Below are positions 31,993-59,776 of a DNA stretch of 64,000 bases, piece after piece. Both the position numbers and the translations under genes were made by a program. Under the pieces are notes generated by a model. It saw only the letters and a program-made list of their open reading frames with translations. It was not told the DNA's origin and searched no databases. Within the stretch, counting starts at the first letter, position 1, and each line of letters starts with the position of its first letter. Source of the DNA: a virus; IMG/VR virus record IMGVR_UViG_3300021962_000044, positions 32,001 through 96,000 of that record, one strand, 5' to 3'.

Positions 31993-33687
31993 ATGGACTT
32001 AAAAGAATTACATTCATTCAAAATGTCAGATGCTGTGACATTTCACGATAGCCTCAATCCTAAACTGTTTCGTGGACAACATCTACAACCTGAAGTAGAA
32101 TTACAATTAAAAACCATAGCACAAGACTTTTTACAAGAGATAGGTATACACGACTTAGATGTACGTGATATCACTATTTCTGGAAGTAATGCCGCCTATA
32201 GTTACACAGACCATAGTGATTTAGATTTACATATTTTAGTCAATATGAAGGATTTACCGGATGATGACATTTACCATGAATTCTTCAAAGCTAAAAAAGA
32301 TTTATACAATGACTCACATGATATTACTATCAACGGGATTCCAGTAGAATTATACATACAAGATGCGGCAGAACCTGTAACTAGTTTAGGTGAATATAGT
32401 GTTAAAGATAATAAATGGTTGCGAATGCCCGCAAAGCGTAGAGCAAACTTTGACCAAACAGCTACTAAGTCAAAATATATAAAACTATTAGATATTATTG
32501 ATACAACATTACAATCTGATAAAATAAGTAAAGTTAATAAAGTATTGAAAAAGATTAAACAATATCGTCAAGCTGGATTAGATAAAGGTGGTGAGTTTAG
32601 CCCTGAAAATCTAGCATATAAAGCATTACGTAGCCGTGGTTACATTACAAAGTTATATGACTTAAGAGACAGATTACATAGTAAGCATTTGAGTTTAAAT
32701 AACATGTATGCTAATGTAGATGAAGATTATGATCCAAATGGTATTCCTCCTGGACCAGAATTTAAGCCAACCATGCCAGCCGGTACTGTTAAAGTAGATG
32801 TAAGTGATACATATGATTGGTATAAGTTGGGACAACATATCAGTAATCTTGATGGATTGGGTAAACATGACTTTGGGCAAGGTCCTCCAAGTACTATAAT
32901 GGCATTTGGTAGTGAAGAGGCAGAACATAAGTATATTGATGCACTAAAGAAAACTGGTCTTACCACAACTGATATTGATCCGTTAGATCCTAATCAACCT
33001 AAAGGTATGAAGCGTCAAAAGACTGACCCTACATATAATGTAAATGAAGCTGTTACTGATAATTATCTATATCACGCTACTATGCCTGCAGGCATGATGC
33101 GTATATTGCGTACAGGTATAATTAAAGCAACTGATAGACCGCAACCATCTACTAAATCAAAAACACAATACCCTACAATTAGTACAACTAGATCAAAACA
33201 ATATGCAGAATCAAACGATTTTGTAGATTTCTTAAACTTAACCAACGACGGTAATGCAGTCATATTAGTATTTGATCGTGCCGCAGTCGCTAATCATTAC
33301 AAAATGTTTAGTACAAGTCAAGGTACACAGACAGTAGGTGACGAATATGAAGAAGTAATTGTTGCCCCCAAAGGAGCAATGCCGATCAAAGGAACCTTAA
33401 AGGGCTTCTATTTCAACCCTAGAAGCACAGAAGAAATAGAAGGATATAAAGATATACCTTGGTTCAACGAGTTATTGACCAGTCCATATTATATAGGACC
33501 AAAACAAGGTGTGGCGGAAGCATCAGGTTATATCCCTAGTGAAAAACAGAAGAATGACCCAAGATTTAGTACAGCATTAACAGTAGATATTAAGCCCGAC
33601 AGTATCAAAAAGAACGCAAAAGCATTCTATTGGAATACTAGTAGAGCAGGTATTCCTCCAACAGCAAAGCCATCAGGCAAAATCTAA
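31993..33687 (+). CDS. mosaic protein: Pol-beta-superfamily nucleotidyltransferase plus ADP-ribosyltransferase-like module
   Basis: ISGSNAAYSYTDHSDLDLHI (GS..DxD) and VELY; later YLYHAT..ISTTRS..LVFDR..EYEEVI between VNE and QGVAE. Confidence 0.65.
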   Translation: MDLKELHSFKMSDAVTFHDSLNPKLFRGQHLQPEVELQLKTIAQDFLQEIGIHDLDVRDITISGSNAAYSYTDHSDLDLHILVNMKDLPDDDIYHEFFKAKKDLYNDSHDITINGIPVELYIQDAAEPVTSLGEYSVKDNKWLRMPAKRRANFDQTATKSKYIKLLDIIDTTLQSDKISKVNKVLKKIKQYRQAGLDKGGEFSPENLAYKALRSRGYITKLYDLRDRLHSKHLSLNNMYANVDEDYDPNGIPPGPEFKPTMPAGTVKVDVSDTYDWYKLGQHISNLDGLGKHDFGQGPPSTIMAFGSEEAEHKYIDALKKTGLTTTDIDPLDPNQPKGMKRQKTDPTYNVNEAVTDNYLYHATMPAGMMRILRTGIIKATDRPQPSTKSKTQYPTISTTRSKQYAESNDFVDFLNLTNDGNAVILVFDRAAVANHYKMFSTSQGTQTVGDEYEEVIVAPKGAMPIKGTLKGFYFNPRSTEEIEGYKDIPWFNELLTSPYYIGPKQGVAEASGYIPSEKQKNDPRFSTALTVDIKPDSIKKNAKAFYWNTSRAGIPPTAKPSGKI

Positions 33688-48962: not shown

Positions 48963-49330
48963 TTAAAAGTTTAAGTACTAGCAGTCCTTTTCTAACAGTA
49001 TCAGGTGGCAATCCTGGATCTACTTATATAGGTAACTATAGCAATAGTCCTGGTGTGGGTAATATGCGATATAACCCCAATAATCAGAATGTAGAAGTGT
49101 ATGACGGTAGTACTTGGATTATTCTTTCAGCACATCATGCTAGTATAAACTTAAATGATGAAACAGTTAGATTGTTAGAGTGGGCTAAAAAGAAAATGCT
49201 AGAAGAAGCCGAGCGCAACAAATTAGCAGAAACAAATCCCACTATTAAAGATTTGATGGAACAAATCAGAGACAAAGAAGAACAAGTTCGTATTGTTCAA
49301 ACATTGATTAAAGAAGAAGTAAGAGTTTAA
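48959..49330 (+). CDS. hypothetical protein
   Basis: GNMRYN..N.EVYDGSTW motif plus coiled coil. Confidence 0.6.
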   Translation: MIKSLSTSSPFLTVSGGNPGSTYIGNYSNSPGVGNMRYNPNNQNVEVYDGSTWIILSAHHASINLNDETVRLLEWAKKKMLEEAERNKLAETNPTIKDLMEQIRDKEEQVRIVQTLIKEEVRV

Positions 49331-50922
49331 TGGAACAAGATAATCTATCAGCAAAGCAAAGCCCTGATTGGGCATTGTTTTTACCCGCAGTCAGTAGTTT
49401 TTATATTTCTGGTTTAGGTAAGCAACGTAAGGGTGAACAATATTTTGACCCTGCACGTATCCCTGCAAAATTTAACGGTGATGTAGAGAAACTAAACTTT
49501 CTTAATAGTAAAGAAGGTCTCTATTATTATAAATGGGGACTATACTCTGCTGGTCATGCTAACTTAGATACTACTAAAGACGATGCTAGTGAATCAATCA
49601 TTAGAGAACGTGAAGAAGGTACATTTATGTTGGGTGACTCTGGTGGATTTCAAATTCTTAAAGGACAATGGCCAGCTGATTGGAAAGATCCTAATTGCCC
49701 TAAAGCTATGATAAAGCGTAAAGCAGTATTGAACTGGATGGATACATACATGGACTATGGCATGGTCCTTGATATTCCTTCACAATCATTAACTACCTTT
49801 CATATGAAGGATCCTAAAACAATTGAAAAAGATGTACATGGTAATGATATTCCGGGTAGTGGAGTAAGTCTTCATGGAATTCAATTTATTGCAGATGCAG
49901 TTAAAGCTACTCATATCAATAACGAATACTTCATTAACAATCGTTCGGGCAAATGTAAATTCTTAAACGTATTACAAGGTCGTACACATACACAATCAAA
50001 CGATTGGTATAATGAGATGAAAAAGTATTGCGATCCAAATATCTATCCAGATAATCATTTTAATGGTTGGGCATTTGGTGGTCAAAACAAAATTGATCCA
50101 CACTTAATGCTAACACGTATGATTGATATTATACATGATGGATTGTTAGTAGAAGATAAACATGATTTAATTCATTGTTTGGGTACAAGTATTTTAGAGT
50201 ATGCTGTCTTGTTTACTGAAATTCAAAAAGCTATTCGTAAATATCATAACCCAAAACTTAAGATTACATTTGATTGTGCAAGCCCATTCTATAGTGCGGC
50301 TAAAGGATTAGCATATTTCAATACTAATATTGAGCATGATAAAAAATGGTCATACAGTATGGAAAAGACGGCCGAGAAAAAAGATTATGCCAATGACACT
50401 AGAAAATACAGAGATGCTGTATTAGCTGAAGGTATCCATAATCTATTTACAGATAGTCCAGTAACTGATAAACTAGTGCTTAAGGATATGTGTTATCGTG
50501 GTCATGGTTTTTTAGGTCAACATAACAAAGAAACCAAAACTAGTTGGGATACATTGAGTTATACATTGATTCAAAGTCATAATGTATGGATGCATATGAA
50601 TGCTGTTCAAGAGGCTAATCGTCAATATGAACAAGGTGTTGTACCTAAAATGCTTATTCATAAACTTGAAGGTAGTAAGTTTTTTAGTAAGGTAATTGAT
50701 GAAATCTTTAGTAAAAAAACTAAACAAGAAGCTATTGACCTAATTGATTATTATAGTAGTTATTGGATGCAGTTTCAATCTGGTAGTCAGGGAATTAGTG
50801 GTAAGAAAACTGCTAATGCAATGACTAGCTTTGACAGGTTATTTATTGTAGAAGATAAACCAAAATTTGAAGAAGAAATAGAAGATAGTGATGATGCAAT
50901 GAATGAGGTATTAGGAGAATGA
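49330..50922 (+). CDS. dpdA: DNA-guanine transglycosylase (TGT/DpdA family)
   Basis: MLGDSGGFQI, VLDIP, LNVLQG, GWAFGG, IHCLG, TFDCASP, SHN motifs; clustered with folE/queD/queE. Confidence 0.85.
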   Translation: MEQDNLSAKQSPDWALFLPAVSSFYISGLGKQRKGEQYFDPARIPAKFNGDVEKLNFLNSKEGLYYYKWGLYSAGHANLDTTKDDASESIIREREEGTFMLGDSGGFQILKGQWPADWKDPNCPKAMIKRKAVLNWMDTYMDYGMVLDIPSQSLTTFHMKDPKTIEKDVHGNDIPGSGVSLHGIQFIADAVKATHINNEYFINNRSGKCKFLNVLQGRTHTQSNDWYNEMKKYCDPNIYPDNHFNGWAFGGQNKIDPHLMLTRMIDIIHDGLLVEDKHDLIHCLGTSILEYAVLFTEIQKAIRKYHNPKLKITFDCASPFYSAAKGLAYFNTNIEHDKKWSYSMEKTAEKKDYANDTRKYRDAVLAEGIHNLFTDSPVTDKLVLKDMCYRGHGFLGQHNKETKTSWDTLSYTLIQSHNVWMHMNAVQEANRQYEQGVVPKMLIHKLEGSKFFSKVIDEIFSKKTKQEAIDLIDYYSSYWMQFQSGSQGISGKKTANAMTSFDRLFIVEDKPKFEEEIEDSDDAMNEVLGE

Positions 50923-53414: not shown

Positions 53415-54077
53415 ATGAGTGAAATTAATGTTTTACCATTATTTTCTACTCCGGTGATGTACGAATATAAAACAGAATATCGTGTTTCACAAAAAGAAAA
53501 AGATATTTTATATTCTTTGGAAGAGCGAACCAATTATGGAAATGCTCTTTCTAAAAATACATATGTTTTAGATTTACCTGGATTAGAAAATTTAAAAAGT
53601 TTTTTGCAATTTAAATTAGATTATTATGCAAAAAATATTGTAGCTGTAGAAGAACAGAAATTCTATATTACAAATTCCTGGACAACAAGGAATCAAATGG
53701 GTGAAAAACATCATTCACATAGACACCCAAATTCTATGCTAAGTGGTGTATTTTATCTGGAAGCTGATGGTAATTCGCCTTTAGAAATTTCACATCGTTC
53801 TAGGATTTTTGAAGATTTTAGATTTTCATTTAAACATACCGAAATGAATATGTTTAATTCTCCGTCTTGGAAGGGGTTAGTTGTTACAGGAAGTTTAATC
53901 ATATTTCCAAGTTGGCTAGTCCATGAAGCACACTCAAACACATCTAATATAGATAGACGAGTATTAGGATTTAATAGTTTTGTTGAGGGTAAGTTTGGTC
54001 CTCAACTAGGATCTGAAGATGCATATTCCGCAGAACTTATACTTACTAACTCAAAGGAAAATTATGGCAACACGTAA
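53415..54077 (+). CDS. 2OG-Fe(II) oxygenase-like protein
   Basis: LFSTP, SW..N, HxH-PNS.LSGVFY, G.LIIFPSWLVH, R.VLGFN. Confidence 0.85.
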   Translation: MSEINVLPLFSTPVMYEYKTEYRVSQKEKDILYSLEERTNYGNALSKNTYVLDLPGLENLKSFLQFKLDYYAKNIVAVEEQKFYITNSWTTRNQMGEKHHSHRHPNSMLSGVFYLEADGNSPLEISHRSRIFEDFRFSFKHTEMNMFNSPSWKGLVVTGSLIIFPSWLVHEAHSNTSNIDRRVLGFNSFVEGKFGPQLGSEDAYSAELILTNSKENYGNT

Positions 54078-54288
54078 ATTAAAGAATATAGATAACGAGC
54101 AATGGCCTAAAATTAATCAAGGAACTCATCTAACAGTAAAAACATTTGAAGATGGGCACACTGAGTTACTATGGGATTGGGACGCACTAGTCAATGAAGT
54201 ACGTGAAGCTTGTGCTAGTGCTAAACTTGCCAATACAAAGCCTGCAGTTAAGGCTAAATCAAAAAAATCAGTTGCTAAAACAAAATGA
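54064..54288 (+). CDS. hypothetical protein; start probably 54064
   Basis: SD AAGGA before MATRKLK; G.HL.V.T..DG.T.L.WD. Confidence 0.55.
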   Translation: MATRKLKNIDNEQWPKINQGTHLTVKTFEDGHTELLWDWDALVNEVREACASAKLANTKPAVKAKSKKSVAKTK

Positions 54289-54369
54289 TAAATACATATG
54301 TTGCATAAAGGCAACAATATAGACCTAGGTCTCGTTGAGCATTAACGATAGATGCTTTGAAAGGAACAT

Positions 54370-55047
54370 ATGTATAAACTTTATCAAATAACCAATACGG
54401 TCAACGGAAAATCGTATATAGGTATCACTAAACTTTCCATAACTGAACGATGGAATGTCCATATCTCTAACTCAATAAAACCCAAATATCCATTACATCA
54501 CGCTATTGCAAAGTATGGATACAATTCTTTTACAATTAATCTTTTAGAAGAAAATCAGGATAGAAAAGTTATCAGTGGACTAGAAGAACCCACTATTCAG
54601 AGACTAAGAACTCATGTAAGTAAACACGGATATAATGTTGCCAAAGGTGGTTATGGTGGTGATTTAGGGCCAGAGGCTACTGCAAAACGAATTGAAACAA
54701 TCAAAAACTATTCACCTGAAAGAAAAGCCAAACATCAAGAAAAATTGCGGTTGCGTAATTTAGGTAAGACGAAAGAAAATGATGCCGGAAGATTATCACA
54801 ATCAGAAAAAATAAAAGGTAATTCTTTTAGAAAAAACATACCACACACCCCTAAATCAAGTTTAAAAATTTCTAGGGCAAATACAGGTAAAATAAGATCC
54901 GAAAGCTCTAGACAGCTATATAGTAAAATTGCTAAAATAAGAGGAACAGGACCTCAATTGCAAGGCAAAAAAGTAAGTTGTATTTGCTGCCAAAGAGATT
55001 GGGATTTAGGTAATTTCACACAACATATCAAAAGGAATTTAAAATGA
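54370..55047 (+). CDS. free-standing GIY-YIG homing endonuclease
   Basis: YKLYQITNTVNGKSYIGIT..RW..H..E..I..GYN..GG.GG; basic NUMOD3-like repeats. Confidence 0.88.
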   Translation: MYKLYQITNTVNGKSYIGITKLSITERWNVHISNSIKPKYPLHHAIAKYGYNSFTINLLEENQDRKVISGLEEPTIQRLRTHVSKHGYNVAKGGYGGDLGPEATAKRIETIKNYSPERKAKHQEKLRLRNLGKTKENDAGRLSQSEKIKGNSFRKNIPHTPKSSLKISRANTGKIRSESSRQLYSKIAKIRGTGPQLQGKKVSCICCQRDWDLGNFTQHIKRNLK

Positions 55048-55724
55048 GTTTTAATAAAAACAAAGCAGACTCGGAGTTGGGAAAACAAGTACATGAATAT
55101 TTGGTAAAGATGGGTGTAGAAACACCTACAAATCCTAACGGATTGAGCCGTACTGATAAAATTGATATCATTGAAGCAAAATTCACTGATATAATGAATG
55201 CATTGGGATTAGATTTATCTGATGATAGTTTAATTGAAACCCCGAAACGTGTTGCAAAAATGATGGTAGGGGAAATCTTTTGGGGGCTAGACTATGAAGC
55301 ATTCCCAAAATGTACAACAGTTGACAACAAGATGCAATACAACGAAATGGTTGTAGAGCGTAATGTTAATGTTCAATCTAACTGCGAACATCATTTTGTA
55401 GTAATTGATGGATTGGCTACTGTAGCTTATGTCCCTAAACAAAAAGTATTAGGGCTTAGTAAGATCAACCGTATTGTAGAATATTTTAGCAAAAGACCTC
55501 AGATTCAAGAGAGGTTAACAGAGCAAATTTTTCACACCTTACAGTTCATCCTTGATACAGAAGATGTTGCAGTTATGATTGATGCCCAACACTATTGCGT
55601 TAAAAGCAGGGGAGTTGAGGATACAGGATCTAGTACTGTTACTTGTCGTTTAGGTGGAGGATTTAAATCTGATCCAGCGGCACGACAAGAGTTCTTACAG
55701 ATTGCTAACAAAGGTTGCAAATGA
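55044..55724 (+). CDS. folE: GTP cyclohydrolase I
   Basis: [39 protein letters not shown]. Confidence 0.96.
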
Positions 55725-55912
55725 AGTTTAAATTAGGTGATATGGTTAAAAAAGTATCAGGTTCACAATGGCACGGTAAAGTAGTAGGTACATATTCAAC
55801 TGAGTTAACTCCTGAAGGATATGCAGTTGAAAGTCATACAGAAAAAGGTTCTGTTCAAATATATCCTGCAAAGGCTCTTGAGTTATGGGAGTTGAATAAT
55901 GGGAATGCGTAA
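55721..55912 (+). CDS. dfrB: type II (R67/DfrB-like) dihydrofolate reductase
   Basis: [52 protein letters not shown] aligns without gaps to the R67 core, including VQIY. Confidence 0.88.
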
Positions 55913-56135
55913 ACAAATGGATTACAATAGTGTACATCATCAAATCTATATGTCTGGTGTAGAACTACATAGTAACTACAATGATGGTTACAATCAATTT
56001 GAAATCAAAAAAGATTTACATCGTATTAAATGGCTATTAGATGAGATTATGGCTGATAGTCCTACATTTGCAGGTGAGGATGAATTCTTAAAAGAACATG
56101 AGCAAACTAAGATGTGGAGAACTCTTTCAAAATGA
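55899..56135 (+). CDS. hypothetical protein
   Basis: 78-aa overlapping ORF. Confidence 0.55.
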
Positions 56136-56605
56136 TTTTTAATCACATTAAGAAACTTAAACAAGACGGTAAGAAAATTGGTATTACCTTCAGTACATTT
56201 GACCTACTTCACGCAGGTCATATTGCTATGTTAAGTGAAGCAAAGAATCATTGTGATTACTTAATTTGTGGACTACAAACTGACCCGACTATTGATCGTC
56301 CTGATACTAAGAATAAACCTATTCAAAGTATCGTAGAACGACAGATTCAACTTGCGGCTTGCCGTTATGTAGATGAAGTAGTTGTATATCAAACTGAACA
56401 GGACCTTATAGACTTATTACTTATTCTACCATTAGATGTTCGCATTTTGGGTGTTGAATATGCTGAGAAAGAGTTTACTGGAAGATATGAAGGCGGAGAG
56501 CGTGGCATTGAACTTGTGTTTAATGGTCGTGACCACAGTTTCAGTAGTTCAAGTTTACGTAAACGGGTAGCTGATGCCCAAATTATTAATACTCTTAATA
56601 AATAA
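56132..56605 (+). CDS. cytidylyltransferase (TagD/RfaE-like); start probably 56132
   Basis: FSTFDLLHAGH, CDYLICGL, KP..S..ER, RYVDEV, SSS.LR. Confidence 0.88.
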   Translation: MIFNHIKKLKQDGKKIGITFSTFDLLHAGHIAMLSEAKNHCDYLICGLQTDPTIDRPDTKNKPIQSIVERQIQLAACRYVDEVVVYQTEQDLIDLLLILPLDVRILGVEYAEKEFTGRYEGGERGIELVFNGRDHSFSSSSLRKRVADAQIINTLNK

Positions 56606-56681
56606 GATAACCGGTCTCTTTGGGCTCATCCCGGTATACAAATTCTGCGTCCTATGCTATAATATAACATAGGAGAACACA

Positions 56682-57164
56682 ATGGCAAACAAAAAATTCT
56701 TTTCAACAAAAACATACAGACAAATAGGTCCTGTAGCATATCGTCAATGGCGTGCTGACAGTCATTGTAACTTAATTCATGGATATGCTATGAGTTTTCA
56801 CTTTGAGTTTGAAGCTGATACATTAGATGCCCGTAACTGGGTAACTGACTTTGGTGGATTACGCCCACTTAAAGATAAACTAGAAGAATGGTTTGACCAT
56901 ACTCTACTAGTCGCACAAGATGACCCAATGCGTGAACATCTATTAGAACTAGGTAGATTGAAACTAGCAAAGATTACAGAAGTAGAACGTACTGGTTGTG
57001 AAGGTATTTCAGACTTTTTATACGAATATGTTAATACAATCTTTTTACCTAACTGCGGTAGTGAAGAAGCTAAACGTGTTTGGTGTTGTAGAGTAGAAGT
57101 ACGTGAGACTGATAGCAATATGGCAGGCCGTAGTGGTCACAGAGAAGATAGAGAGTTTGAGTAA
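56682..57164 (+). CDS. queD: 6-carboxytetrahydropterin synthase
   Basis: SHCNLIHGY, WVTDFG, FDHTLL, GCE, VEVRET. Confidence 0.88.
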   Translation: MANKKFFSTKTYRQIGPVAYRQWRADSHCNLIHGYAMSFHFEFEADTLDARNWVTDFGGLRPLKDKLEEWFDHTLLVAQDDPMREHLLELGRLKLAKITEVERTGCEGISDFLYEYVNTIFLPNCGSEEAKRVWCCRVEVRETDSNMAGRSGHREDREFE

Positions 57165-58012
57165 TGGCACAGTTAAAAATTTCAGAACTATTTTATAGTA
57201 TACAAGGAGAGGGCCGATATATCGGTGTACCAAGTATTTTCCTAAGAACATTTGGTTGTAACTTTACCTGTGCAGGCTTTGGCATGCCTAAAGGTCAAGT
57301 AAGTAAAGAAGTAGAAGATATTGCCGCAAGGGTTCACTATTATGATGATTATAAAAAATTACCGTTGGTTAGTACAGGGTGTGATAGTTATGCTAGTTGG
57401 GATCCTAGGTTTAAGCATCTTAGCCCTATGCGTAGCACCGATGATATTGTTGACAGCATTATGGCTATGCTTCCTCACAGTCGCTGGATGGATGAGCACC
57501 TTGTTATCACTGGTGGAGAGCCTCTACTTGGTTGGCAAAGGTCTTATCCTGAATTACTTTCAAACGAAAAGATGAGAGCATTAAAAGAGATTACTTTTGA
57601 AACTAATGGTACACAAGAACTAAGTCAAGACCTATCAATCTATCTACAGAAGTGGAAGATTAATAGAGAAAAGAATGCATTAACATTTAGTGTTAGTCCT
57701 AAACTAAGTATCAGTGGTGAGAAGTGGGAAGACGCAATTTGTCCTGATATCATTCGTCAATATGAAACTGTAGGCTTTGTGTATTTAAAGTTTGTGATTG
57801 CTACTAAAGAAGATGCATTAGAAGCAGATAAAGCCGTACAAGCGTTTCGGACTGGTGGATTTAGAGGTCCAGTATACTTTATGCCATGCGGTGGTGTAGA
57901 ATCTGTTTATAATTTAAATGCAAAAAATGTTGCTATTGAAGCAATGAATCGTGGTTATCGTTATAGTGATAGATTACAAGTGCCGTTGTTTAAGAATGAA
58001 TGGGGAACATAA
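57164..58012 (+). CDS. queE: 7-carboxy-7-deazaguanine synthase (radical SAM)
   Basis: ISELFYSIQGEG..G.P..FLRTFGCNFTC..(insert)..CDS, VITGGEPL, ETNGT, SVSPKL. Confidence 0.92.
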   Translation: MAQLKISELFYSIQGEGRYIGVPSIFLRTFGCNFTCAGFGMPKGQVSKEVEDIAARVHYYDDYKKLPLVSTGCDSYASWDPRFKHLSPMRSTDDIVDSIMAMLPHSRWMDEHLVITGGEPLLGWQRSYPELLSNEKMRALKEITFETNGTQELSQDLSIYLQKWKINREKNALTFSVSPKLSISGEKWEDAICPDIIRQYETVGFVYLKFVIATKEDALEADKAVQAFRTGGFRGPVYFMPCGGVESVYNLNAKNVAIEAMNRGYRYSDRLQVPLFKNEWGT

Positions 58013-58021
58013 GATAGTTCC

Positions 58022-58255
58022 ATGTTAGATTATCCAATAGATGATGATGTATTTTACAACAATGCATTAATGAGAGGTCTAGGATCAACTCTTAAGTTTG
58101 CATGGTTGCCTAAAAGATGCGTGTTAACAGGTAAGTTAATTTGGTTAAAATATGGTTATAGAATTACAGCAATGTGGACAGGGCCAGGTGAGCCCGTATT
58201 TGAACACAAGTGGCACGATAAGAATGCCCATATTATGTGGTTATTAAAAAGGTAA
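58022..58255 (+). CDS. hypothetical protein
   Basis: KFAWLPKRC..TGK.IWL..GY. Confidence 0.5.
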   Translation: MLDYPIDDDVFYNNALMRGLGSTLKFAWLPKRCVLTGKLIWLKYGYRITAMWTGPGEPVFEHKWHDKNAHIMWLLKR

Positions 58256-58259
58256 ATAT

Positions 58260-58442
58260 ATGTATGAATTAAGATATCTTGTCCGAAGTGGTTGGGACGG
58301 ACCTGAACAAGTGTTACAATATAGAACACAACTTGAAGTTACAGACTATAGCGGAACTACTACAAACGGTAGTTTTACTAAAAAACGTGAATGGACTGAA
58401 TGGCAAGATGTACCTACTATAGATGAAACTAAGAAAAAATGA
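58260..58442 (+). CDS. hypothetical protein
   Basis: LQYR..WTEWQDVP; ATGA overlap with next gene. Confidence 0.55.
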   Translation: MYELRYLVRSGWDGPEQVLQYRTQLEVTDYSGTTTNGSFTKKREWTEWQDVPTIDETKKK

Positions 58443-59776
58443 GAACATACGATAAACGAATTGGCTTTTTAGTAAGCTATCAAACCCTCATCCCGCACGG
58501 GGGAATAGGGCAATTTACTAAAAGTTTTTGCGAATTAATGAATCAACATAATATTAAAGTTGATATCATTACGGATAAAGAACCACAAAATACTGAGTTT
58601 GTTAAATCTATAAAAGCAAATATTATTGCTCCATTGGAATCATTAAAATATACCGATCACAGCAGTATCTTTATGTATGGAGATACATTTTGTTATGAAC
58701 GAATGGCTAACTTCCGTACAGCTATTGTAGAAGCATTAGAACATAATCTATATGATGCATTGATATGTAACACCTACGAAACTGTACAAGTAGCAAGTAC
58801 TATGGGACTTGAAGATGTTATTCAAGTGATTGCATACACACACTTAGAAAGTCAAATCTTTAAAGATACAAAAAATCCCTTTTTGTATTCTACAAATGAA
58901 ATGATGCGTAAACAATTAGATATGAATGGTATTGTAGTTGGTACACAGAGTAAATTTAATCAAGTTAGTATTGGTGACACAGTATTTCATTTACCTATTC
59001 CTATCACCGAGTCTAGTCTATTAAAAGAATATCACAATCCGCGTGAAGGTATATTGTTTGTAGGTAGATGGGAAGAAGGTAAGAATCCTGAATTGTTTAT
59101 TGATTTAATTGAACAAACAAAACTACCTGCAAAAGTTATGACTAGTCCAAACGGTGTTAAGAAGTTTGAAGAACGACTATCAAAATTAGGTGTCAAGTAT
59201 GATGTTCGTGCTAGTATTGTAGGTCAAGAAAAAGTTGACTTTATGACAAGTGCTAGAATTGCATTCAATCCTAGTATTGTTGAGAGTTATGGTATGGCAT
59301 TCTATGAACAACATATTCAATTACCTACATTAGTATTAGAAAATCAACGTTGGACTAATAACTTTAACAAAGATTTCTTTTACACTTGTACTAAAAAAGA
59401 TATGGCATCAAAAGCAAAAGAATTGTACGATATTTTTGAAAAAGCAGAAAGATGGTATAACTTGGGATCATTGCAACATGCACAAGAACAAGAAGCTACT
59501 GTCTTTCATAAATGGAACAACTGTTTTAATGACTTTGAACCTAAAAAATCTAACACAAATACTGCAAAGATATGTAATGAAAATACAGTTAAACTTGTTG
59601 ACTTCATTAGTGATTTAAACCGTAGTATTATATGTATTGATGATGTACGCAGTGTTTTAACCAATAAACATAAGTTTAGAGTTATCTATACTGATGACGA
59701 CACATATTTAACAAAAGATCCTAGTTTTGAACCAATAGAAGAAGTTGAAAGTTTATCACTATTTGAGGGATTATGA
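58439..59776 (+). CDS. GT-B (GT4-like) glycosyltransferase
   Basis: PHGGIGQF, ILFVGRWEEGKNP, FNPSIVESYGMAFYE. Confidence 0.85.
   Translation: MRTYDKRIGFLVSYQTLIPHGGIGQFTKSFCELMNQHNIKVDIITDKEPQNTEFVKSIKANIIAPLESLKYTDHSSIFMYGDTFCYERMANFRTAIVEALEHNLYDALICNTYETVQVASTMGLEDVIQVIAYTHLESQIFKDTKNPFLYSTNEMMRKQLDMNGIVVGTQSKFNQVSIGDTVFHLPIPITESSLLKEYHNPREGILFVGRWEEGKNPELFIDLIEQTKLPAKVMTSPNGVKKFEERLSKLGVKYDVRASIVGQEKVDFMTSARIAFNPSIVESYGMAFYEQHIQLPTLVLENQRWTNNFNKDFFYTCTKKDMASKAKELYDIFEKAERWYNLGSLQHAQEQEATVFHKWNNCFNDFEPKKSNTNTAKICNENTVKLVDFISDLNRSIICIDDVRSVLTNKHKFRVIYTDDDTYLTKDPSFEPIEEVESLSLFEGL

Follow-up and report, generated by a model that had tools for sequence, protein, structure and literature searches.

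An R67-type dihydrofolate reductase homologue encoded as an optional cassette in the folE-queD-queE region of a giant phage lineage

The dfrB-like gene and its surroundings

The window analysed here is a stretch of 64,000 nucleotides (positions 32,001 to 96,000) of a single IMG/VR record, IMGVR_UViG_3300021962_000044, which measures 111,075 bp and was estimated by CheckV to be 32% complete. The record encodes a 1191-aa tail sheath protein and a family-B DNA polymerase whose best GenBank matches, at 43-48% identity, come from giant phages (Atu_ph07, Phosso and RaK2-like). On the basis of these two proteins and of its completeness, the contig represents roughly a third of the genome of a giant myophage and, since only 32% of that genome is covered, absences on the contig mean little. 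Positions 54370-58012 of the window hold a set of tightly packed genes, all co-oriented on the plus strand, and no terminator-like site was found on that strand between folE and queE. The set opens with a GIY-YIG homing-endonuclease-like gene (54370..55047; PF01541, E = 1.6e-7), which among the related loci was detected by tblastn in L001 and L010 only, and continues with folE (55044..55724), coding for a GTP cyclohydrolase I (PF01227, E = 1e-60; NF006824, 321 bits for a cut-off of 202). The folE stop codon overlaps the start of the 63-aa ORF under study here, dfrB (55721-55912): the dfrB ATG at 55721 and the folE TGA at 55722-55724 share the sequence ATGA, and an AAGG is located 9-12 nt 5' of that ATG. 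The next gene, orf78 (55899..56135), is conserved in 23 related loci and gave no family match in Pfam or NCBIfam; its first 14 nt, read in another frame, encode the last DfrB residues (NGNA) and the dfrB stop codon. It is followed by genes for a cytidylyl/adenylyl-transferase-like protein similar to RfaE domain II (56114..56605; PF01467, E = 4e-12; TIGR02199, E = 2e-22, below the cut-off), a divergent QueD/PTPS-family protein (56682..57164; PF01242, E = 5e-15; TIGR03367, 33 bits for a cut-off of 89) with a weak PDB match to 6-carboxytetrahydropterin synthase, and a divergent QueE-like radical-SAM protein (57164..58012; five QueE NCBIfam models with E values from 1e-13 to 8e-10, all below cut-off, and a weak Pfam Radical_SAM match). 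Given the sub-threshold NCBIfam scores, the QueD and QueE assignments are putative. QueD enzymes carry a CxxxHGH motif, which in the window protein reads CNLIHGY, i.e. CxxxHGY, with a tyrosine replacing the presumed zinc-ligand histidine. Two glycosyltransferase-like genes, a 2OG-Fe(II) oxygenase gene and a GalE-like epimerase gene flank the array.

Searches of the window's own contig (32% complete) gave no match to ThyA, ThyX, TGT/DpdA or QueC, and the complete related genome G025 yielded nothing above cut-off for TGT/DpdA and QueC, so that the end product of the cluster and a DNA-insertion enzyme are putative. Just 5' of the cluster there is a 530-aa ORF (49330-50922) with no Pfam or PDB sequence match, for which the sole lead was a language-model similarity of 0.93 to a viral protein cluster carrying a TGT domain in 30% of its members. 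A preQ1-I-like riboswitch considered at positions 56610-56684 found no support, as a search of positions 54000-58500 against all Rfam families, with E values up to 1 and permissive filters, returned no match. Nucleotide comparison of the 3.6-kb cluster with GenBank phages, in a set from which records close to the window may be missing, was also without matches.

The 63-aa product contains both TPEGYAVES and GSVQIYP. It matched the Pfam family DHFR_2 (PF06442) with an E value of 4.3e-22 and 78.2 bits (cut-off 25) over profile positions 24-75 of 78, and the NCBIfam model trim_DfrB (NF000331) with an E value of 3.9e-25 and 87.6 bits, a score that lies under the cut-off of 137 bits for naming DfrB alleles. 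R67 chains of the PDB (1vie, 6ny0, 3sfm and 2p4t) aligned to residues 3-54 with about 63% identity (E ~2.6e-17). As judged from sequence, the DHFR_2, trim_DfrB and R67 matches are far above chance, and the single DHFR_2 match within the whole 111-kb record corresponds to this gene. We are thus virtually certain that the 63-aa protein is a homologue of the DfrB family of dihydrofolate reductases (DHFRs; R67-type or type II). The initial annotation of this DNA had described a 63-aa ORF with an R67 core that overlaps the folE stop codon as ATGA, and had placed it in the SH3-fold DfrB family and in a phage setting. The ORF, the two motifs and the family matches bore out that description, as did the translational overlap with folE and a neighbourhood with no integron or clinical context.

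The fold assigned to the protein also agreed with R67. A single-chain AlphaFold model, built on an alignment of 39 homologues, showed five strands with a mean pLDDT of 88.1 and superposed on the five-stranded SH3-like barrel of R67. The non-SH3 fold that the initial annotation had named as an outcome speaking against its reading was therefore not obtained. When the model was compared with the PDB by Foldseek, the top 7 matches were all R67 DHFR (TM 0.85-0.96, rmsd 0.8 Å, 56 columns), and the next ones were generic SH3/KOW-like folds with E values of 0.018 or worse. According to the R67 alignment, R67 numbering equals the window residue number plus 21. Lys11 (codon 55751..55753, plus strand) corresponds to R67 Lys32, a pore-rim residue contacting the tails of substrate and cofactor, and Ser44-Val45-Gln46-Ile47-Tyr48 (55850..55864, plus strand) corresponds to S65-V66-Q67-I68-Y69 of the pore or "active-site" strand B4; all these residues are kept and were invariant in the 39 homologues. 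Ser38, equivalent to R67 Ser59, is also retained, and Thr24 occupies the position of R67 Trp45. Of the two R67 residues of the dimer-dimer interface, Trp38 is retained (Trp17, invariant in the 39 homologues) and His62 is replaced by Glu41 (codon 55841..55843, plus strand), a change with respect to the clinical enzymes that is nearly invariant in the environmental and phage clade. His62 may not be defining for the family, as active homologues vary widely outside the fold (PMC12486381). Comparison of dfrB with its relatives on other viral contigs produced dN/dS values of 0.00-0.06 at dS values from 0.4 to about 3, indicating strong purifying selection. The gene has a GC content of 35.4% and a GC3 of 20%, in agreement with the values of the phage (GC 35.5%), which points to a long-resident gene and not to a recent import.

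Distribution of dfrB among related phages

A scan of IMG/VR with the DfrB protein retrieved at least 94 viral stretches, from which 80 loci were kept, and at least 474 protein clusters were found. In about 38 related viral contigs (L001-L037 and L042), dfrB was inside a folE...queD...queE cluster in one of two arrangements. The window type reads folE-dfrB-orf78-nucleotidyltransferase...queD...queE; the other one reads folE...nucleotidyltransferase-queD-dfrB-queE, with dfrB placed 20 nt 3' of queD and often overlapping the queE start. The queD-dfrB pair alone was visible in six loci, and in a third group (L039-L045, L058 and L060) dfrB preceded the GT399 block by about 1.5 kb or more. Every copy seen in this lineage thus belonged to the folE...queE region or its vicinity, with three positions in all, a recurrence that at first glance speaks for a functional link. 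However, all the dfrB-containing clusters belong to one lineage, for which one acquisition plus local shuffling suffices, so the two or three positions do not constitute independent evidence.

A second survey was anchored on QueE, keeping the best 80 of more than 599 viral stretches. FolE, QueD and QueE were all present in 36 of these 80 loci, only 4 of which had dfrB, and the gene order of the window was found in 20, again with dfrB in 4; these four contigs were already among those of the DfrB scan. Constant co-occurrence of dfrB with the FolE-QueD-QueE cluster was thus not observed, and the gene was absent also from the complete relatives G051 and G052. In the relatives lacking dfrB (81-94% QueE identity), the folE TAA overlaps the ATG of orf78 (TAATG). 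Aligning the DNA of this junction from the window, L002 and L011, with dfrB, and from L091, L093 and L105, without it, revealed a clean gene-sized indel, the inserted cassette extending approximately over positions 55723..55895 of the plus strand with similar short flanks, GTTGCAAATGA on the left and GTTGAATAATG on the right.

The slot between folE and orf78 can also be filled by other genes. An unrelated ORF of about 64 aa was present there in L090, L108 and L109, and a phosphoribosyltransferase-like ORF of about 180 aa with the motif ILIVDDINDSGATL replaced dfrB in L112 (~790-1340) and L161 (~1260-1815); a purine or 7-deazapurine salvage enzyme at this site could be functionally meaningful. 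L004-L006 had an extra small ORF at the same junction. Other junctions of the cluster contained, depending on the relative, genes for a Bax1-I membrane protein, a class II aldolase, a P-loop kinase, a sugar epimerase/dehydratase or a UvdE endonuclease, and the accessory genes at the queD-queE junction were very varied (e.g. L002, 7443-8793; L016, 8365-9405). This diversity of cassettes marks the region as a hot spot for accessory genes, with dfrB as one optional occupant. We conclude that dfrB is an optional accessory cassette in this giant, freshwater-type myophage lineage and has no fixed partnership with folE. The initial annotation had suggested a native role in pterin/folate redox from the link to folE and queD, along with a neighbourhood survey as a check. 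The survey found dfrB in just 4 of 20 syntenic loci; as the cluster occurs without dfrB in the majority of relatives, and the gene behaves as a clean indel in a slot reused by other cassettes, a native pterin role was not supported by that link.

Outside this lineage, 26 phage records of GenBank had a DfrB domain, several of them annotated as R67 DHFR. Their contexts included replication and recombination modules, a DNA methylase and a site between two pieces of a DNA polymerase, and none adjoined folE. The last of these sites (L172; MW202697.1, 2842-4966) has an "R67 dihydrofolate reductase" gene between two ORFs both annotated as DNA polymerase, an arrangement that resembles a split polymerase gene with a mobile insert; the phage concerned, a freshwater podovirus, is the closest GenBank phage (78% identity). 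In many smaller viral contigs among L050-L076 (e.g. L061, 3377-4600, and L063, 5938-7000) the DfrB domain was apparently C-terminal in ORFs of 140-345 aa, whose starts were left unrefined, and sometimes two or three DfrB-cluster ORFs were in tandem. Fusions of the DfrB domain are known from the literature.

Candidate roles of the phage DfrB

By homology with R67, four SH3-like protomers would form a ring with a single central pore, and this pore would have Lys11 and Ser44-Val45-Gln46-Ile47-Tyr48 along its wall and accommodate NADPH and 7,8-dihydrofolate for hydride transfer; a pore with the R67-type architecture would also be intrinsically insensitive to trimethoprim. Based on the conserved pore residues and on the experiments performed with homologues (PMC9835603, PMC12486381), the 63-aa protein is very probably an active, trimethoprim-insensitive DHFR. 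FolA-type DHFR (PF00186) gave no match in the window's contig, 32% complete, or in its relatives searched. The relative G025 (367 kb, 100% complete) encodes ThyA (352,580-353,488) and DfrB (239,971-240,141) and has no PF00186 match. ThyA is equally present in the complete genomes G051 (349 kb) and G052 (525 kb), which have neither DfrB nor PF00186. Since these two phages have ThyA without a DHFR of either type, dfrB must be dispensable and the host FolA can serve. The distance from dfrB to ThyA was 15 kb in G018 and 112 kb in G025, so the two genes are not adjacent in these relatives. Adjacency was seen only in an unrelated viral locus (L073), where dfrB overlaps the start of a gene for a 370-aa ThyA and is preceded, at a distance of about 1.6 kb, by a dCMP-deaminase-like ORF, an arrangement that is a classical nucleotide-metabolism module. 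Among four near-complete viral records with DfrB, one had ThyA.

The explanation that we favour is that the ORF is a genuine, expressed-type gene for a DfrB DHFR, carried by a cassette that would have landed at junctions of the folE-queD-queE hot-spot region, and that its product would turn the dihydrofolate left by the phage ThyA during dTMP synthesis back into tetrahydrofolate; taken as a whole, we regard this account as probable. Recycling for thymidylate synthesis is preferred because the phages of the lineage lack a FolA-type enzyme, and this part of the account, which coincides with the role proposed for viral DfrB (PMC12486381), we hold to be reasonably likely. Several observations go against it. 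A pure thymidylate role does not predict that the copies of the lineage are all found in the folE...queE region or close to it; the residue at the position of R67 His62 is a glutamate and the tetramer is a prediction from homology; the 111-kb fragment of the window, 32% complete, has no ThyA, and in relatives ThyA is 15 or 112 kb away from dfrB; G051 and G052 encode ThyA but no DHFR; just one of the four near-complete records with DfrB has ThyA; and dihydrofolate reduction by DfrB may itself be secondary (PMC12486381).

The location of dfrB would also be accounted for if DfrB worked with FolE, QueD and QueE. It might, for instance, salvage CPH4 from oxidised 6-carboxy-7,8-dihydropterin by renewed reduction, or act on a different dihydropterin derived from the FolE product. 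The gene lies inside the cluster in the ~38 contigs mentioned above, where it follows folE immediately with the ATGA overlap or else begins 20 nt past queD and runs into the queE start, and the six loci with the queD-dfrB pair alone point the same way. Besides, R67-type enzymes hold mainly the pteridine ring of the substrate, in a permissive pore, and CPH4, the substrate of QueE, is oxygen-sensitive. Nevertheless, we consider such a pterin-related function unlikely: the established FolE-QueD-QueE chemistry proceeds without an external reductase, dfrB accompanies the three genes in only 4 of the 36 loci that have them all and in 4 of the 20 that are syntenic (among the best 80 of more than 599), the complete relatives G051 and G052 carry the cluster without it, its positions are not independent but those of one lineage in a region full of unrelated inserts, and phage DfrB homologues elsewhere have no link to folE. 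Were it true, it would explain the copies directly after folE or queD and give the R67 fold its first native role outside folate reduction.

Two further readings were weighed against recycling for ThyA. The folate route begins with the FolE reaction and ends with that of DHFR, and the translational overlap of folE and dfrB would suit a phage FolE that raises folate flux in the host and a DfrB that reduces the newly made dihydrofolate. This is the same chemistry as in ThyA recycling with another source of substrate, and it seems improbable to us, since the other enzymes of the cluster suggest 7-deazaguanine over folate, the second arrangement has dfrB after queD and not after folE, and most relatives with folE have no dfrB. 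It is also conceivable that the SH3-like domain binds a nucleotide or a protein, or simply rides on mobile DNA, dihydrofolate reduction being incidental. Catalysis by DfrB has been argued to be possibly promiscuous to an unknown binding function (PMC12486381), the domain of GenBank phages is often fused to other domains and encoded in replication or recombination modules, the MW202697 copy lies between two DNA-polymerase pieces and, in the window, a GIY-YIG endonuclease gene is just 5' of folE. On the other hand, the invariant VQIY pore strand and Lys32 equivalent and the very strong purifying selection are more in line with a pore used for catalysis than with a surface for generic binding, and the window copy consists, as the active clinical enzymes do, of the minimal domain standing alone; we therefore give this possibility little credence as well.

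No new pathway is established by the dfrB of the window. What this work adds to the known environmental pool of this intrinsically trimethoprim-insensitive enzyme is a large, well-conserved set of DfrB-type reductases of minimal size from giant phages that are uncultured, and the occurrence of the same cluster with and without dfrB offers a natural presence/absence series that could be used to test the value of the gene to the phage.

Comparison with known DfrB enzymes and phage reductases

DfrB copies of phages had been published before. DfrB2-like ORFs were reported in 2020 in four freshwater virome contigs, with 67.31% identity and 83% coverage, and their function was left open (PMC7265639); the window protein gave the same figures, 67.31% identity and 83% coverage, against the clinical DfrB3 and DfrB10. 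In 2023, a Vibrio-phage homologue was shown to confer on E. coli resistance to trimethoprim up to 600 µg/ml, and a Pseudomonas-phage homologue was not solubly expressed (PMC9835603). A 2025 study collected 386 homologues and analysed 20 viral ones (PMC12486381). It found that VQIY is exclusive to DfrB cluster I, which includes the clinical enzymes, that cluster I homologues with 38-55% identity to DfrB1 are active tetramers and that 114 of the 148 homologues tested produced trimethoprim resistance; it proposed that DfrB serves dTMP production in ThyA+ FolA- viruses, with the reservation that some unknown binding function may come first and dihydrofolate reduction second, and the word folE is absent from its main text. 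The non-clinical phage reservoir of dfrB-like genes put forward in the initial annotation is thus correct, as attested by the 26 GenBank phage records and the at least 94 IMG/VR stretches, but it is not new (PMC7265639, PMC9835603, PMC12486381). To these published copies the window gene adds another one, in a folE-queD-queE setting.

The core of the window protein is 63-67% identical, over 52 residues, to R67/DfrB1-DfrB10, the plasmid- and integron-borne type II DHFRs (PDB 1vie, 2rk1 and 6nxz), with which it has in common the SH3-like fold and the equivalents of Lys32, Trp38 and Ser65-Tyr69. It differs from them in lacking the disordered N-terminus of about 20 residues of the clinical DfrB proteins and, relative to R67, in having Glu for His62 and Thr for Trp45; furthermore, its gene is part of a phage operon with 35% GC, whereas the clinical ones are integron cassettes. 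The phylogeny against clinical DfrB that had been suggested along with the initial annotation was built from 209 DfrB domains over 56 columns and, with 116 of its 166 branches open, was used only for the separation of the clinical clade. In it, clinical DfrB1/3/4/10 formed a separate clade on a long branch (SH-aLRT 99), and the window protein fell outside, in a large and poorly resolved environmental and phage clade. The picture of the origin of the clinical dfrB genes is accordingly left unchanged. Of the viral copies seen, that of L078 (1481-1636; IMGVR_UViG_3300032046_000995) came closest to the clinical genes: its DfrB domain is 79-81% identical to clinical DfrB1/3, has the AHP motif, in the clinical-type form DAHPGSVQIYPV, and groups with the clinical clade (SH-aLRT 91).

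With the viral DfrB proteins characterised previously (DfrB-H3 from a Pseudomonas phage and DfrB-H4 from a Vibrio phage; PMC12486381, PMC9835603), the window protein shares a phage origin and the VQIY type of cluster I, and its complete relative G025 matches the ThyA+ FolA- state for which the dTMP role was proposed. The published viral copies have ThyA, a DNA methylase or replication genes as neighbours, in contrast to the folE-queD-queE region of a giant phage, and DfrB-H3 and DfrB-H4 were reported with additional domains, whereas the window protein consists of the 63-aa domain and nothing else. Among Pseudomonas- and Vibrio-phage records, the best matches encode proteins of 167 and 218 aa, which may correspond to DfrB-H3 and DfrB-H4. 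Phage T4 provides a functional parallel, its frd (FolA-type) and td (ThyA) genes having the same proposed job of recycling the dihydrofolate from the phage thymidylate synthase; however, frd is unrelated to DfrB in fold and origin, and dfrB and ThyA are not neighbours in this lineage. A further counterpart, from a clinical setting, is encoded by plasmid p1160-VIM of P. aeruginosa (WP_257792703.1, 67 aa), in which (L088, 177-380; NZ_MF144194.1) a short-type "DfrB family" gene with a TERG motif lies between aadA1 and an IS110-family transposase gene. Its product is 69% identical to the window protein over residues 2-62, is likewise a short form without the long N-terminus, has the TE(K/R)G motif and belongs to the same environmental clade, but its gene resides on a conjugative clinical plasmid and that of the window in a phage.
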